8,162 bases of DNA, taken from a virus. Its lineage: Duplodnaviria > Heunggongvirae > Uroviricota > Caudoviricetes. The DNA is taken from IMG/VR virus record IMGVR_UViG_2671180770_000010, positions 1 through 8,162 of that record; one strand, written 5' to 3'. The notes under the pieces are model-generated. The model worked only from the letters and a program-made list of their open reading frames with translations. It made no database searches and was not told the origin of the DNA. The position numbers and the translations under genes were made by a program. This document shows, piece by piece, positions 92-7,916 of this stretch; within the stretch, counting starts at the first letter, position 1; each line of letters starts with the position of its first letter.

Positions 92-883
92 TTATTTCAC
101 CTGCACCACCACAAACTCATCCGGATCCGGCAGCACCATCAGCGGTGCGGACTGCGTCATGGTGAATTCACGGGCCGGATCGCCCACAGTCAGCCAGTGT
201 TTCGGATAACGGGAAGAGGCCACCACACCTTCGGACAACGCCTGCGCATCCTGAATGGCACCATAGCAACGAATGCCCTCTGCTGCCGTATTCCCCAGGA
301 CCAGTGTGCCCACCGGCAGATAACGTTTTTCGGTACCGTCGTCTGCCACATAAGACGTTTTCGCCACCACAATGGCCAGATCACCGTAATACCCTTTGAA
401 AGACACCACCGCTCCCAGGTCTTTCACTGCCGTTTCGAGTTGTGAATTTGAGCCGCGACGGGTATCCAGTTTTTCGCGGAACAGCTTAAAGCCATTCAGC
501 AGACGCCAGACCGTACCGTCCATAATGGCAATATTTACAAGACCGCTGGCCTGATCGCAGTAAAGGTCAATATCATGCGTCGGATCAAACGTATCACGGT
601 CCTGCTCAGACCATTTTTTACCGTCGGCCTGCTCAATGTTATTTCCTTCAGAGCGTCCGAAATCCACCTCGACCGTGTCAAACTGTTCCCCTTCCATGGT
701 GTATTTGCCATACAGCACGGCATTCACCGCCTGCATTTCTTCCACCTGGACAATGGCGTGCTCTTCCTGTTTGAGGTTATCGGTAATGATACGCAGACGA
801 CGGTAGGCCGGGTCGTTCAGCTGAGCCGGATCTTCACCAGGAAGGCGCTCAACCGCCTGCTGGTAATTAAATTCGTGTTTGGG
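92..883 (-). pseudogene. N-terminally truncated lambda gpE-family major capsid protein (roughly residues 80-341 retained)
   Basis: The translation carries gpE-like blocks (VEEMQAV, KLDTRRGSNS.LETAVKDLG, GDPAREFTM.QSAPLM, PDEFV.VQ). Hand translation upstream of the listed start shows the homology continuing to 883 (PKHEFNYQQAVERLPGEDPAQLNDPAYRRLRII). It then ends at an in-frame TAA at 884-886 with no start codon. Candidate internal starts are GTG 743-745 and ATG 734-736. Confidence 0.8.
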
Positions 884-1019: not shown

Positions 1020-1925
1020 ATGCGCTCACCCAACAGAATGCATGAACGCTCAACATTTTATAAGTATATGTCGTTGAATACCGCGAAGATTGTTCTTGAT
1101 TCATGCAGCCTTAGATGGAGTTCTCCGGTCCTATTTAATGACCCTTTTGATGTTCCAAGAGAAGTTATGCCTGGTATTAACGAAATTAATATTGGCAAAG
1201 CTTTAGCCCGCAAGTTAATAGCGGAGTTGATTACCCCCAGAGAAGACATACAAAATTTAAATCCTAGAATTAGAACAATGCTAAGTGATTTCCAAAAGTC
1301 ATTTCCTTTAGGCATACCCGCAGGATTAATTGAAAGATTTCAAGAAATGGTAAACATTCCACCAGTTGGGATTGGCGCTCCTGCGGCAATACAAGAAATG
1401 AAAGATGTCTGGCGAGGAATGCTTAATAACAGAAGGATTTTGTGTTTATCTGAGAGCCCTATAATCACTCCTATGTGGAATCACTATGCCGATAAATATA
1501 AAGGTATAGTTATCGAATTTGATTGTGTAGACTTTCTGGATAGCGCTTGGTTAATAGCCAAACCTATGAAATACACAGATGAAATGCCTCTAACTCACAC
1601 TGCTGAAGGGATGGCCGAGTTGCTTTTCATGCCAGACAATAAGTCAATTGAATATATCAATAATGAGATAATATTCATAAAAACAGAAGAATGGGCATAT
1701 GAAAGAGAGTGGAGAATTTCAACCTACGCTAGGCCAAATAGCACTGGTCAATATAGCGACTTAAAATTTCACCCTTTTGAGTTAAAATCTGTAATACTTG
1801 GTCCTCTTTTTGATGCCAGCGAGTTCGATGAAGTCGCATCACTAGTTAAGATGTATCCAAGAGCGAAATTATTTAAAAGTTCATTTGGGAACGACAGAAA
1901 AATATCCATAGTACCACTACCTTAA
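1020..1925 (+). CDS. Hypothetical 301-aa protein, DUF2971-like (tentative family assignment); candidate accessory or anti-phage cargo gene
   Basis: Long ORF with AGAGGA 5 nt before the ATG. It is strongly AT-rich compared with its flanks and is convergent with the neighbouring phage genes. Motifs YKY..L......L......SP.LFNDPFD, LCLSE and W.HYAD.YKG..IEFD match my recollection of DUF2971. Confidence 0.7.
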   Translation: MRSPNRMHERSTFYKYMSLNTAKIVLDSCSLRWSSPVLFNDPFDVPREVMPGINEINIGKALARKLIAELITPREDIQNLNPRIRTMLSDFQKSFPLGIPAGLIERFQEMVNIPPVGIGAPAAIQEMKDVWRGMLNNRRILCLSESPIITPMWNHYADKYKGIVIEFDCVDFLDSAWLIAKPMKYTDEMPLTHTAEGMAELLFMPDNKSIEYINNEIIFIKTEEWAYEREWRISTYARPNSTGQYSDLKFHPFELKSVILGPLFDASEFDEVASLVKMYPRAKLFKSSFGNDRKISIVPLP

Positions 1926-2828: not shown

Positions 2829-3212
2829 TCAACCAATCAGCTTATAGCGACCATCCCGTGCATTGCGGCGTACACGCTCAATCTTGAGGCATAGCGCCGC
2901 ATCTGGCTTTTTTGGGACAGGTACGCGGCAATATTCAGAAGCGCGAGGAATATTATTTATCCAGTCGATCACTTCACTTAAATACCAGGCCTTACGCCCT
3001 TCCGTAACCTGCACACGCTCCGGGAACTCTCCACTAGCCTCAAGGTTTAGCAGTGTACGACGACTCAGGGTTGTAATTTCCATCACCTGATTCATATCAA
3101 CAAGGCGCTCGCTTAAACACATTTTGTCAGCGATAGCTTTTAATTCCTCTACAGCTGGATTCGGGTACATCATTTCGGCAATTGGCTTAAGGTCATTGTA
3201 ATCATTCTGCAT
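2829..3212 (-). CDS. AlpA/Xis-like HTH DNA-binding protein (127 aa), last gene of the capsid operon and adjacent to cos
   Basis: The C-terminal segment EITTLSRRTLLNLEASGEFPERVQVTEGRKAWYLSEVIDWI fits the AlpA-family MerR-like HTH pattern. The start ATG at 3210-3212 follows AGGGGGA, just after the upstream gene's TAA. Confidence 0.6.
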   Translation of the reverse strand: MQNDYNDLKPIAEMMYPNPAVEELKAIADKMCLSERLVDMNQVMEITTLSRRTLLNLEASGEFPERVQVTEGRKAWYLSEVIDWINNIPRASEYCRVPVPKKPDAALCLKIERVRRNARDGRYKLIG

Positions 3213-3574: not shown

Positions 3575-4615
3575 TTAGCCAATGCGAACGGTAACAAAAC
3601 GATTGATGCGGGCCGGTATTGGCTGTGGTGCTGAATGTGTCTGCACATATTCAATAGCCGGATCACCAGGCACAATATAGTTTTTCGGTGCAAGTTCGGC
3701 TTTAGTCAGCCCCATTCGGATTAGCTCCGGATCCTGAATACCGCCATAGGCGACAATCCCCTGAAGAGCCGTATTGCCAAGCACCATCAAATCAGGATCA
3801 AGGAAATGTTTTTCTGTTCCGTCCTCGTCGGTATAACGCCCGCTGTAAACAACAATCGCAACATCGCCCATATACCCTTTAAAACTCACCGAATCACCAA
3901 GGTCTTTAAGGGCCGTTTCCAGTTCGGAATTAGAACCACGACGGGTATCCAGAGCCTCTTTTATAGCTCTGAATGAACGGTATTTCTTCCATACATTACC
4001 GCCCATAATGATAATATTAGTGACGCCCTCACTAAATTCTGTGTAGCTCTCAATATCATCATTTGGATCAAAAGTTTCTTTATCCTTACCTGACCACTCA
4101 GCACCGCCAGACTGAGTGATGATATTTTGTGGTTTAATATTCCAGTCCAGCTCATAACGTTCAATACCATCGCCCTCAATGATATTTTTCCCCGTTGTGA
4201 TTGCCTGAACAGCAAGCCATTCAATACGTGCACGAATAGCTTTAGCTTGATTTACAATCGCCTGTTTAACTTTAATATTACGCGCCCCAAAAGCATTGTA
4301 TTGCTCAGGTGATACACCAGCAGGGCGCACAGCTAACTTATTTGGATCAATGCTGCTTTTCGGCTTCATATAGCCTGGACGAATTGTTTTTGATTCGTAC
4401 CCTTCGTCACGTGAAACTTTACTACCCACCATAGGAGAACAAAACGCTGCAATTGGGATATTTGGATCGTCGATTGTATCAAGAATAATATCGCGCGATT
4501 CAAACATTACCGAGCGAGTAAAAAACAAACTGGTAAACAACGCATTTAGTTGTTTTTGTACATCTACAGCATTAACCACCTGTACAAGCTGAGTAGGCGA
4601 ATATAAATCAACCAT
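3575..4615 (-). CDS. Major capsid protein, lambda gpE family (complete, 346 aa)
   Basis: gpE-like blocks run the full length (LYSPTQL..., RPGYMKPK, ITQSGGAEWS, DTRRGSNSELETALKDLG, GDPA.E). I moved the start to the ATG at 4613-4615, which has AAGAGG 6 nt upstream. The 404-aa ORF in the track is an upstream over-extension. Confidence 0.85.
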   Translation of the reverse strand: MVDLYSPTQLVQVVNAVDVQKQLNALFTSLFFTRSVMFESRDIILDTIDDPNIPIAAFCSPMVGSKVSRDEGYESKTIRPGYMKPKSSIDPNKLAVRPAGVSPEQYNAFGARNIKVKQAIVNQAKAIRARIEWLAVQAITTGKNIIEGDGIERYELDWNIKPQNIITQSGGAEWSGKDKETFDPNDDIESYTEFSEGVTNIIIMGGNVWKKYRSFRAIKEALDTRRGSNSELETALKDLGDSVSFKGYMGDVAIVVYSGRYTDEDGTEKHFLDPDLMVLGNTALQGIVAYGGIQDPELIRMGLTKAELAPKNYIVPGDPAIEYVQTHSAPQPIPARINRFVTVRIG

Positions 4616-4789
4616 ACGCATCCTCTTTGCATTCATTAAAAATAATTGTGGATATATGCTATCACCGATATTTGTCATGCGAACACATGCAACCGAGTGC
4701 AATGTTGTATAAAGTTTTGGGGTGACAACTTCAGTGCGGACAATTAGTGTTAATATCTTCACTCCCTTTGGTCGGGATTTATGTAGCAT

Positions 4790-4832: not shown

Positions 4833-5282
4833 TTAAAACGGGATATCATCTCCCCATTGCTCATTATCTCCCACTGGTGGCTGGCTTCCTTGCTGATCTG
4901 CCTGTTGTTTTGCTCTGTTCAGTGCGTCAGTAGCCTGCCCCTGTTGGCCTTTTTTGCCGCCCGGTCGCACCGATCGCGCACTGATTACGCTGTCTGCGAT
5001 AACCTGCCAGCCCTGCCGCGTTTCGCCGTTCTGTCCAGTCCACTGGCTCATCTGCATGTTACCCGCCACGCTTAGGAGTTCGCCTTTGTGATGCTTTGCC
5101 AGCGCGTCGGCTTGTCTGCCAAACGCCAGGACAGATAACCACATCGTCGCCTGACCGTCATCCGACTGACTGCAGGGCAGTGATACCGCCATACGCGCCA
5201 GCGTCATGGGGGTGCCCTTGCTGGTCTGTTTTGTCTGCGGGTCGTCCACCAACCGCCCGTAAACTGATATTTGCGCCGTCAT
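4833..5282 (-). CDS. Single-stranded DNA-binding protein (SSB family), 149 aa
   Basis: OB-fold-like N-terminal region (ISVYGRLVDDPQ...TKQTSKGTPMT..., WLSVLAFGRQAD), a Gly/Gln-rich linker and the canonical acidic tail DDIPF. Its ATG overlaps the upstream gene's TGA as ATGA at 5279-5282. Confidence 0.8.
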   Translation of the reverse strand: MTAQISVYGRLVDDPQTKQTSKGTPMTLARMAVSLPCSQSDDGQATMWLSVLAFGRQADALAKHHKGELLSVAGNMQMSQWTGQNGETRQGWQVIADSVISARSVRPGGKKGQQGQATDALNRAKQQADQQGSQPPVGDNEQWGDDIPF

Positions 5283-5524
5283 GCTGCCTGCTCTCCGGAC
5301 TTAATATTGATTGTTGTCACTTCCTCCGCTTCAGCAATCTCCCGTTCGGTCAGAGTGGCAAAATTTGCAGCCGCCGTTGTCATGAATGCGCTAATCAGTT
5401 CGGGATGTGCTTTCGCGTATCCTTCCCCGGCGTTGCGGTCGATGATTTTTATCGACACCCTTAACCAGTGTTCCGTCAAATCAAGGGCGTGCGATTGTGA
5501 TTTTTTTGTGTGCTTCGCTGTCAT
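5279..5524 (-). CDS. Hypothetical 81-aa protein, translationally coupled to the SSB gene
   Basis: ORF sits directly downstream of the iteron region and overlaps the SSB start by ATGA. I do not recognise a family. Confidence 0.5.
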   Translation of the reverse strand: MTAKHTKKSQSHALDLTEHWLRVSIKIIDRNAGEGYAKAHPELISAFMTTAAANFATLTEREIAEAEEVTTINIKSGEQAA

Positions 5525-5570
5525 AGGCTTTATCTCACAGCAGTAAATTAAAATTTTTGCGTTTTAACCC

Positions 5571-5798
5571 TTCACCTGTTCACCTTTTGATATTTTCTCT
5601 TTTAATTCATAATGTTAATGGGTGAACAGTTTCACAAAAACTATTCACCAACTGTTCACCACTGTTCACCCTTGAAGCTCAATAAACAATCAAAAAGGTG
5701 AACAGTGAATAGTTTGGTGAACAGTTCATAAATAACTGTTCACCCTATAATATACTGATATAAAAGATATTTATGACAGGGTGAACAGTGGTGAACAG
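5571..5798. repeat. Iteron array (P4 ori/crr-type TGTTCACC repeats); putative replication origin
   Basis: About ten copies of CTGTTCACC or its complement GGTGAACAG in both orientations (5576-5584, 5621-5629, 5652-5660, 5662-5670, 5697-5705, 5716-5724, 5736-5744, 5780-5788, 5790-5798, plus degenerate copies). An AT-rich stretch lies at 5745-5779. The array is adjacent to the primase gene. Confidence 0.75.
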
Positions 5799-5811
5799 TT
5801 ATTCCATAAGT

Positions 5812-7632
5812 TTAATTTTTGCTATCGTCATTAGTGACCGATACACATGATGGCATCCAGTCTTCTGATTCCTCCGTCAGTGTCACGTTTGAACGCAAAC
5901 CGTGCTTCGTTTTCCGTTTCATATACTCCCTGCCATATTCCGCCATTGCCCCCGGCATATCTTTACCGAAGCGCGTCAGTGTTACAGGTTTACCAAACCC
6001 ATGTGCCCTCATATAAGCCAGATAGGCATGATAGAGATACCTGCGTGGGCTGAATGGCACAATTTCAGCATTACCCACTAACAGGCCATCACACATTACC
6101 GATGCCATGAGATAGCCGCAGAAGTCCACCAGCGAATCCCCCTCTCGCTTTATCGCCAGTGCTTCTTCAGATTTCTGCTGCTCATATAACAGGCGTCTGG
6201 CTTCGTCCTGATCAGCAAACCGTGTAAGCAGATGACGAATCACTACCGCCAGCTCACCTTCTATTTTTTCCGCCAGCATCGAATCGCGTTCGTTCTCCGG
6301 TACAACTTCCGAAAAATTGAATATCACCCGACGACGTGAGATCCCCCCGCTGCGGTCACTGAATGACATGGCGTTATTGTTAACCACCAGCACTACTGCC
6401 GGAATACGCGTTGAATAGGGGGCTTTGTGTTTCGGGTCAATTGCCACCTTGTCACCGCCTGTAATGGCCTTAATCCCTGCCCCATCACCAGCGTAGCGGG
6501 TCATATCTGGCATGATAATCAGCGAAAAGCCAACCACTAACGCACGTTCCCTTGCATCTTCCAGCGCCTTCATGCTTGCTGATACTGTATTAGCCTTACC
6601 CGCCAGCATGGTGCAAATCTCCGCCATCACGCTTTTACCACTTCCCCCCGGCCCTGTTACCTCAATGAATAACTGCCAGTCGTACCGGTTCGCCAGCACC
6701 ATGAATAATGCCGCCAGTACGCGATCTGCCTTGCGGTCATTCTCAGCCACCGAACGGCGCAACCACTTCCAGAAATTCGGCGCATGTGTTGCCAGCGTTT
6801 CCCCCTCTGCTGGTGGGCTGAAAGGTAATTCACTGGCAATTAACAACCAGTCGTTTTTGTTATGCTCCCGAAAATTACCTGTTCTGGTATCAAATACCCC
6901 GTTACTGAATCCAATCAGGTTACGGGCTGTATTCCCCATTACAGGCAAACTTAACTTCATGGTATCTACCGCCGATTTAATGGCGTTCTGCGAATAGCTG
7001 ATCTCCGCATCAATGAAAATCTGCGCCATAGCACGCTGTAACTCTTTATCCTGAACCGGCTCCCATACAACGCCGTTGTAATGATGAACGGTGTCAGAGT
7101 CGGCATTGATTGCCAGTTCGCCGCCGTAATGTGCCAGGAGAACTTCACCGCGCTGGCTGGCCCCCATCTGATTCAACGCCAAAGATGAAGCACGCTCGTC
7201 ATTTTTGCGCTCTGCCTTCTTCACTGGCAGTTCAATCACCAGACTTTCCCCATGCTCCGCTTCAGCTTTTAGGCCGACAAGGCGCGGAGTCCAGTCTTCA
7301 GGCTCTCGATCAACAAAGCTACGGTAACAACGTGCTTCCTTTACGCCTGCAATAGCAAGTAATGTCGCAACCTTCGTCAGACTTTTCTCTGCAATCTTTC
7401 CGGCACGATAAACACGCACATAATGACGGCCTTCATCGATAATTTGCATATCATCCAGGTTTTCCAGTTGTTCCGTACCCAGAATTACTGGTGGTGTATC
7501 ATCTGCTGCAATATGCTTACCTGCCCATTCATTCCATTCTTTTGCATGGCTCCAGGCATCACTGCCAGCAAAAATGATGACTTCCGTCATTTTGTCGCGC
7601 GGTTGGTATTTTAAGTTCGGAGCACGTTTCAT
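5812..7632 (-). CDS. P4 alpha-like replication protein (phage/plasmid primase-helicase family; pri-rep)
   Basis: 606-aa ORF with the Walker A motif GPGGSGKS (EVTGPGGSGKSV) in its central region. Its size, architecture and the adjacent TGTTCACC iterons are typical of P4-family and PICI primase/helicases. The ATG overlaps the upstream ORF stop as ATGA at 7629-7632. Confidence 0.85.
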   Translation of the reverse strand: MKRAPNLKYQPRDKMTEVIIFAGSDAWSHAKEWNEWAGKHIAADDTPPVILGTEQLENLDDMQIIDEGRHYVRVYRAGKIAEKSLTKVATLLAIAGVKEARCYRSFVDREPEDWTPRLVGLKAEAEHGESLVIELPVKKAERKNDERASSLALNQMGASQRGEVLLAHYGGELAINADSDTVHHYNGVVWEPVQDKELQRAMAQIFIDAEISYSQNAIKSAVDTMKLSLPVMGNTARNLIGFSNGVFDTRTGNFREHNKNDWLLIASELPFSPPAEGETLATHAPNFWKWLRRSVAENDRKADRVLAALFMVLANRYDWQLFIEVTGPGGSGKSVMAEICTMLAGKANTVSASMKALEDARERALVVGFSLIIMPDMTRYAGDGAGIKAITGGDKVAIDPKHKAPYSTRIPAVVLVVNNNAMSFSDRSGGISRRRVIFNFSEVVPENERDSMLAEKIEGELAVVIRHLLTRFADQDEARRLLYEQQKSEEALAIKREGDSLVDFCGYLMASVMCDGLLVGNAEIVPFSPRRYLYHAYLAYMRAHGFGKPVTLTRFGKDMPGAMAEYGREYMKRKTKHGLRSNVTLTEESEDWMPSCVSVTNDDSKN

Positions 7633-7916
7633 TTGTTACCTCCGGCAACTAACATTGCCCGAATTTTGCGGATATAGCCTGCGGCACGCCTCTGATTATC
7701 TGTCTTGCAATTTTTTACCAGAATGAAATCTCTTTCGAACTGCTGACGCGGCATAACACATTCAAAATCATAACCATCACGCAAATAAGAGACACGACGA
7801 TCATCAACCGAAATAATCTTTACCCGATAGCCATAGCTGTCTTTGAAAATATCCCCAAGGCTGATTTTTGAATGAGTTTGACCGCTGGCAATAAAGCCAG
7901 AAAATTTATTTTTCAT
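7629..7916 (-). CDS. Hypothetical 95-aa protein, translationally coupled to the primase gene
   Basis: ORF has GGAG 8 nt upstream of the ATG at 7914-7916 and an ATGA stop/start overlap with the primase gene. No family recognised. Confidence 0.5.
   Translation of the reverse strand: MKNKFSGFIASGQTHSKISLGDIFKDSYGYRVKIISVDDRRVSYLRDGYDFECVMPRQQFERDFILVKNCKTDNQRRAAGYIRKIRAMLVAGGNK

Follow-up and report, generated by a model that had tools for sequence, protein, structure and literature searches.

The array of short repeats at positions 5568-5798 of the 8162-bp window (the whole stretch of DNA analysed here) is very probably the vegetative replication origin of a phage satellite, bound by the satellite's own initiator. 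This assignment is based on features that can be observed directly: the repeat sites and their layout, their homology to ori and crr of phage P4, the homology of the initiator and of its DNA-binding domain to P4 alpha, the conservation of the layout among relatives, and the co-variation of the repeat with one element of the initiator, the wing. The kind of element is already known from the P4 origin and from the origin of Gram-negative PICIs, and a close structural counterpart, that of EcCICFT073, has been functionally tested.

Genetic context of the array

The array is located in the gap between an initiator gene and the orf81-SSB gene pair, on a stretch where the genes are encoded on the minus strand. 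The genes that are needed to follow the argument are:

7629-7916, minus strand, DUF4222 gene
5812-7632, minus strand, initiator gene ('primase family', 606 aa)
5279-5524, minus strand, orf81 (phrog_1231, no assigned function), with its ATG at 5524
4833-5282, minus strand, SSB gene, overlapping orf81 by 4 nt
92-745, minus strand, 3' half of the major-capsid gene of a lambdoid prophage

Past the SSB gene, the minus strand continues with genes for a lambda-E-type major capsid protein, a head-decoration protein, an AlpA-like protein and a Nu1-type small terminase. The same 8 kb are found with 96.5% identity in E. coli strain 980-2, where they are part of an island of about 10.5 kb that carries int, AlpA, Icd-like, DUF4222, initiator, orf81, SSB, capsid, decoration, HTH, TerS and DUF2971 genes. 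This island interrupts the major-capsid gene of a lambdoid prophage, and the N- and C-terminal halves of that gene are annotated as pseudogenes on both sides (8983-9771 and 20333-20578 in the coordinates of the 26-kb locus L004). With a satellite inside its major-capsid gene, the helper would be without capsid protein until the island is excised. The concept of helper-embedded PICIs and the capsid-E site have been described before (PMC10111431). [quoted passage not shown] The replication module is, by its homologies, P4-related, but the element is not a P4-like satellite, and the annotation of the island contains none of the P4-like core genes psu, sid, delta and epsilon.

Architecture of the iteron array

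When at most one mismatch is allowed, CTGTTCACC has 12 matches on the two strands of the 8162-bp window, against 1.53 expected (sd 1.19), and not one of 200 shuffles of the window reached this number. Ten of these 12 matches are clustered in 5576-5798. The array at 5568-5798 is made up of nine exact CTGTTCACC/GGTGAACAG sites, one site with one mismatch and two sites with two mismatches:

5576, 5652, 5662 and 5736, exact forward CTGTTCACC sites
5621, 5697, 5716, 5780 and 5790, exact reverse sites of CTGTTCACC
5641, site with one mismatch, CTATTCACC
5568, site with two mismatches, CCCTTCACC
5704, reverse site with two mismatches, CTATTCACT

Adding the two sites with two mismatches (5568 and 5704) brings the array to 12 sites, six per orientation, and to its true extent of 5568-5798. 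The original prediction had described about ten repeats with one embedded AT-rich stretch. The repeats are real; there are, however, 12 sites, and the AT-rich spacers are two and not one. Within the array we distinguish the following parts:

5568-5798, no strand, complete iteron array and putative origin core, 12 CTGTTCACC-consensus sites in two inverted six-site modules
5697-5798, minus strand, module A, adjoining the initiator gene, minus-strand order FF, AT spacer, R, F f F
5568-5670, plus strand, module B, adjoining orf81 and an inverted copy of module A, plus-strand order f F, AT spacer, R, f F F
5745-5779, no strand, AT-rich spacer of module A, 80% A+T, candidate DNA-unwinding element
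5585-5620, no strand, AT-rich spacer of module B, 83% A+T, candidate DNA-unwinding element
5671-5696, no strand, dyad centre between the modules, 73% A+T
5545-5567, no strand, A-tract/T-tract beyond the last iteron pair, kept in nine aligned relatives, in P4 crr and in Serratia loci

The gap between initiator and orf81 measures 287 bp; the array begins 14 nt past the initiator stop codon, and its last site lies 43 bp from the orf81 ATG. Counted in gene direction from the stop codon, the sites are found at 14, 24, 67, 88, 100 and 107 nt in the first module and at 141, 151, 162, 183, 227 and 235 nt in the second, with the orientations ++-+++ / ---+--. The second half repeats the first as its reverse complement, and modules A and B align locally with a score of 64. 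The whole array is an imperfect palindrome centred near 5683, and as single-stranded DNA it gives one long imperfect hairpin of -47.5 kcal/mol (z = -7.6 against shuffles). The usual distance between neighbouring sites is 10-12 bp, or about one helical turn. Two pairs are only 7-8 bp apart, of which 5568/5576 share one base and 5697/5704 overlap.

The spacers of the two modules are 35-36 bp long and belong to the least stable DNA of the window. The least stable 30-mer overall is 5745-5774 (dG -27.0, against a window mean of -39.9 with sd 3.6), and the third-least stable one, 5590-5619, lies within the spacer of module B. The array is non-coding, with no ORF of more than 29 aa inside it. The possibility that the repeats lie in a conserved coding sequence in homologs, raised with the original prediction, was not borne out, as the array comes after the stop codon in the aligned homologues. 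No Rfam family matched anywhere in the window, and neither DnaA boxes nor GATC sites occur in the array. IHF-like sequences were seen in the array as matches with one mismatch only, and we give them no weight. In locus L004 nine of the 11 exact TGTTCACC copies fall into the array, which is the single cluster in the island and its surroundings; the two copies outside are isolated, with about one expected by chance.

Relation to ori and crr of phage P4

A blastn search against phage records matched window positions 5603-5675 to the feature of P4 annotated as 'origin of DNA replication / ori type 1 repeat' (X51522, 9304-9378). The annotated type-1 repeats of P4 are TGTTCACC, and this 8-bp iteron is identical in the window array. 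Ziegelin et al. reportedly found in 1993 that alpha binds these type-1 iterons. The likeness extends to the arrangement of the sites. The type-1 block of P4 ori (X51522, 9310-9413) has six sites in the order FF, AT-rich spacer, R, FFF, as does each of the two window modules. They are placed at 17, 27, 70, 92, 103 and 113 with the orientations ++-+++, and the spacings after the first site are 10, 43, 22, 11 and 10 nt in P4 ori compared to 10, 43, 21, 12 and 7 nt in module A. Aligned locally to P4 ori, module A scored 64 (shuffle maximum 27) and module B 69 (shuffle maximum 22). The earlier suggestion that the iterons are of the P4 ori/crr type is therefore well founded, given the blastn match to P4 ori, the identical TGTTCACC and the alignment of both halves. 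It is further backed by the homologue of the alpha origin-binding domain in the window initiator and by the crr-like position behind the initiator stop codon.

P4 crr (X51522, 4291-4590) is situated directly downstream of the alpha gene and carries type-1 iterons in both orientations, and the window array likewise follows its initiator gene. In crr an AT-rich spacer is followed by a terminal iteron pair and then by an A/T tract, which is similar to module B, and the spacer plus terminal pair of module B align with the two crr units with scores of 58 and 47 (shuffle maxima 27 and 32). However, crr consists of two direct 120-bp repeats with a differing internal order (R, FFF, AT, RR), and P4 has an annotated terminator, t-alpha, between the alpha gene and crr, where none is detectable in the window. 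P4 ori, in turn, is a single module about 4.5 kb away from crr, positioned between ORF88 and sid and not behind the initiator gene. Three type-2 repeats (GRCTTTAART) are also part of P4 ori but not of the window array: none is found near the array, and the three matches in the window are at chance level. Thus, where P4 has a separate ori and crr, the window has two modules fused as an inverted repeat. Since the island contains a single iteron cluster, the fused, inverted P4-ori-like modules would replace the separated ori and crr.

The initiator protein

The 606-aa initiator has Pfam matches to D5_N, DUF5906 and Pox_D5. Its residues 149-596 are 50% identical to residues 323-771 of P4 alpha, a region that covers the D5_N, SF3 helicase and C-terminal domains. 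The C-terminal domain is about 50% identical to that of alpha, and its phmmer match, PDB 1KA8, is the P4 alpha origin-binding domain. Three parts of the protein matter here:

7189-7632, minus strand, N-terminal domain, aa 1-148, common to EcCICFT073 Pri-Rep and not found in P4 alpha
5851-6141, minus strand, winged-helix origin-binding domain, aa 498-594, phmmer match to PDB 1KA8 (E = 1.9e-24)
5878-5925, minus strand, 'wing', aa 570-585, YMKRKTKHGLRSNVTL, putative determinant of iteron specificity, co-varying with the iteron

P4 alpha is organised as primase, SF3 helicase and winged helix (PMC2777425). The window initiator shares the homologous SF3 helicase and winged-helix domains, but the DnaG-type primase domain of alpha (Zn ribbon and Toprim) is absent, and no primase motifs are recognisable in its N-terminal domain. 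Without the Zn-ribbon and Toprim domains the label 'primase' is unproven. It may be that the PICI 'Pri-Rep' has no primase function and relies on host DnaG; primers would presumably be made either by the N-terminal domain of the initiator or by host DnaG. Compared to EcCICFT073 Pri-Rep, the initiator is 43% identical over 598 aligned positions, that is over the full length including the N-terminal domain. Helicase and winged helix are 51% and 50% identical to P4 alpha, as against 46% and 36% to EcCICFT073 Pri-Rep. The helicase and winged helix are thus slightly nearer to P4 alpha while the N-terminal domain is of the PICI type, so that the initiators of the two satellite families make up a single family whose N-terminal modules can be exchanged.

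Some E. coli genomes encode 233-aa proteins (P0018 and P0019) in which the N-terminal domain of the initiator is fused to an SSB domain. These look like products of deletions that removed the helicase and origin-binding domains along with the origin.

Conservation of the layout and co-variation of wing and iteron

We collected 152 related loci. The array hardly varies among the E. coli copies, apart from an occasional gain or loss of one 10-bp unit. Such changes were seen downstream of the initiator in L086, L090, L143 and L152, one of which carries an additional unit of 10 bp in its central triplet, while the other three lack one unit; this variation in iteron number is as expected from slippage between tandem sites. 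Nine relatives were aligned (from Klebsiella, Raoultella, Kluyvera, Pluralibacter, Citrobacter and Serratia, and the induced prophage vB_KppS-Ant), eight of which have 76-83% identity in the C-terminal 166 aa. Their identity to the window is 0.78 in iteron columns and 0.585 in spacer columns (Mann-Whitney p = 2e-5). The position of the array relative to the initiator stop codon is constant in dozens of diverged loci, and the layout of the window recurs in more distant relatives with at least six other iteron sequences. Other iterons are distributed as follows:

TGTCTACC, E. ruysiae, Kluyvera georgiana and Enterobacter
CTGTCCGCC and CTGTCCACC, Serratia
CTCTCTACC, Symbiopectobacterium
CTGTGCACC, Proteus, in a single module
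CTATACA(C/T)C and CTCTACAT, Xenorhabdus and Photorhabdus

Across the relatives the wing, which follows helix 3, co-varies with the iteron, and the rest of the domain is 77-99% identical. One such pair comes from two Serratia loci, L016 and L017, in which 70 of 71 residues of helices 1-3 are identical compared to nine of 21 in the wing, and the iterons, CTGTCCGCC and CTGTCCACC, differ in one base. Between the window and L008, identity is 85% outside the wing but falls to 29% within it, and the iterons are TGTTCACC and TGTCTACC. In contrast, identity to P4 is 45% outside the wing and 56% within it, and P4 and the window have the same iteron and a common wing signature. One exception was found: EcCICFT073 and L012 have a TCTACC core in common, and their wings are unrelated. 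We infer from these comparisons that the wing of the winged helix reads the variable middle of the iteron. Because the iteron tracks the initiator wing, the pattern is one of cognate initiator/iteron pairs and argues against sites of another regulator. The end of the initiator gene together with the following 270 nt of L016 and L017 represents a natural wing swap that could be used for specificity tests.

Comparison with EcCICFT073 and other origins

EcCICFT073, an E. coli island, is the prototype Gram-negative PICI, and its gene order (DUF4222, pri-rep, gap, small ORF, SSB, capsid, decoration) is that of the window. Its intergenic gap has 288 bp compared to 287 bp in the window, and the 12-site layout ++-+++---+-- is the same. 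The two differ in the iteron, which is CTGTCTACC in EcCICFT073 and CTGTTCACC in the window, and also in the wing (YITRKVKGVTQTNAIT in EcCICFT073), and one EcCICFT073 spacer is GC-richer than those of the window. A segment with pri-rep and ori of EcCICFT073 drives plasmid replication, which is reduced by deletion of either part (Fillol-Salom et al. 2018, PMC6092414). According to the same work, a PICI ori directly follows the 3' end of the initiator gene and has an AT-rich region with a set of iterons on each side (PMC6092414). The window array lies directly 3' of pri-rep and has two modules with AT-rich spacers. For a studied helper-embedded PICI, little or no replication of the satellite was seen after excision in two of three repeats (PMC10111431), and the origin may contribute little in the helper-embedded setting.

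The ori of SaPIs and other Gram-positive PICIs is also described as lying immediately 3' of rep, with two iteron sets around an AT-rich region, the iterons being specific for the cognate Rep (PMC6092414). The window is likened to these elements by the description of the layout; their initiators belong to another lineage, and pri and rep are often separate genes. SV40 large T and papillomavirus E1 are SF3 helicases with an origin-binding domain of their own, which recognize palindromic sites beside easily melted AT-rich DNA, and these palindromic sites direct two opposed hexamers. This likeness is mechanistic only: the DNA sites have no homology to the window, and the origin-binding domain is a C-terminal winged helix in the window initiator and N-terminal in T antigen and E1.

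Alternative roles of the array

The original prediction held that the promoter of the orf81-SSB operon must lie in the array and that binding of the replication protein may be coupled to transcription of the downstream genes. In its strongest form this idea makes the array mainly a transcriptional control region, with operators at an orf81-SSB (and capsid) promoter that are bound by the initiator or by an AlpA-type regulator. We regard this as improbable. It does account for the array occupying nearly the whole gap upstream of orf81, up to 43 bp from the ATG, and for the short AT-rich stretch past the last site that is kept in relatives, and autoregulation is well known for the iteron-binding initiators of plasmid replicons. 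However, a consensus scan of 5350-5950 gave neither a sigma-70-like site nor a terminator. In a PWM scan of the gene strand the best score was 8.2, which is below the mean of the best scores of shuffles (10.0; 95th percentile 13.1), and on either strand neither scan returned a promoter above the shuffles. The promoter that the original prediction required in the array is thus not supported, with no sigma-70-like site above chance. As no terminator separates the initiator gene from orf81, in contrast to P4 with its t-alpha, read-through is sufficient and is the simplest source of the orf81-SSB mRNA. A weak or activator-dependent promoter may be present in the gap. Gram-negative PICIs are reported to be transcribed in one direction from an AlpA-activated promoter (PMC6092414, PMC10111431).

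The proposed coupling to downstream transcription also fits poorly with the relatives, where the array stays with the initiator gene whatever gene is next. It is followed by orf81-SSB, by SSB alone, by a capsid gene or by other ORFs, and in P4 only by attP and int. The A/T tract is likewise not tied to a downstream operon, as it is present in P4 crr, which has none. The tract also follows the terminal pair of each P4 crr unit and is found in the Serratia loci, as would be expected of an origin element more than of a promoter serving one gene. At 5545-5567 it probably belongs to the origin and is less likely to be a promoter for the downstream gene. Finally, the iteron co-varies with the wing of the initiator and not with an AlpA-like protein.

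It seems less probable still that the array is only a crr-like enhancer in cis or a copy-number (handcuffing) element, with initiation elsewhere in the island. The array does occupy the place that crr has in P4, and module B has a spacer and an end pair similar to the crr units; in P4 itself, crr is required in cis and yet is not known to serve as the replication start site. Against this, there is no second iteron cluster in the island or in the 26-kb locus, and both modules have the full layout of P4 ori and not that of crr. In EcCICFT073 the rep gene and the same region sufficed for plasmid replication (PMC6092414). There is next to no likelihood that the repeats are the remnant of a small mobile element with inverted ends, or chance low-complexity DNA. 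A 9-bp direct repeat, AATTTTTGC, does occur on both sides of the palindromic array, at 5552-5560 and 5814-5822, but by our estimate a 9-bp repeat is expected about 0.4 times by chance in 451 AT-rich bases. One of the two copies is within the initiator coding sequence, and no such repeat is evident in the general alignment of the downstream flanks of relatives that retain the array. The constant place of the array relative to the initiator stop in dozens of loci and the homology of the sites to functional P4 sites also speak against such an element, and we rejected the flanking repeat as chance.

Proposed mechanism of initiation

For the array as the satellite's origin, we propose the following sequence of events. 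After induction, the 606-aa initiator would bind the 12 CTGTTCACC iterons via its C-terminal winged helix, with the beta-hairpin wing reading the variable middle. The bound protomers would nucleate SF3 helicase rings on or beside the two spacers of low stability, where the DNA would melt, and replication would then proceed bidirectionally from the array. The SSB of the satellite, encoded two genes downstream, would probably coat the unwound strands. Fused as a 230-bp palindrome, the two modules would take the place of the ori and crr that P4 keeps apart. Binding by the 606-aa protein, melting of the spacers and firing of the origin are predictions, and two opposed helicase rings would be expected from the dyad symmetry and from the analogy with other SF3 initiators.

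The window PICI has the same iteron as P4, TGTTCACC, and the P4 wing signature (Y-x-K-R-x-T-K-x-G...N-x-T-L), so the origins may be cross-recognised. That the PICI and P4 satellites indeed recognise each other's origins in one cell is conceivable and, in our estimate, rather unlikely. If it were the case, the PICI origin could be fired or titrated by P4 alpha, and P4 ori/crr likewise by the PICI initiator. A P2-dependent and a lambda-dependent satellite would then be incompatible as replicons, or one would pirate the replication of the other.

Significance and annotation

The general picture of how such origins work is unchanged by our analysis, and the points added here are refinements rather than surprises. 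Three of them go beyond the statements that we found in the literature. The origin of Gram-negative PICIs would be a P4 ori module that is present twice, in opposite orientations, the natural variants single out the wing as the reader of the variable middle of the iteron, and the 'primase' protein is without the primase domains of P4. Full-text searches of the literature for the bare motif TGTTCACC returned unrelated primer lists only. The wing and iteron variants could serve as ready-made orthogonal initiator/origin pairs. The 287-bp gap is present in 594 of 5426 complete E. coli genomes, with no annotated feature among the 40 matches listed, and it can now be labelled as a putative satellite replication origin.

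Other genes of the island

The DUF4222 gene was considered as a counterpart of P4 cnr, the copy-number regulator of alpha, and was dismissed: there is no similarity, and cnr is a DUF5375 protein. At the end of the island, the DUF2971 gene (1020-1925, plus strand) is on the opposite strand and has a low G+C content of 36-39%. In other strains its position is taken by genes annotated as 'abortive infection family protein' or 'restriction endonuclease' (hits H22 and H23), and the place looks like a variable slot for cargo or defence genes. Between the head-decoration and small-terminase genes lies a second AlpA-like helix-turn-helix gene (2829-3212, minus strand, 127 aa), another AlpA gene adjoining int outside the window; the second AlpA-like protein may control the packaging genes. 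The longest ORF of the satellite capsid gene (3575-4789, minus strand) has 404 aa, compared to 1041 nt (346 aa) in the RefSeq homologue, which suggests that the first 58 or so codons of the ORF are probably untranslated.
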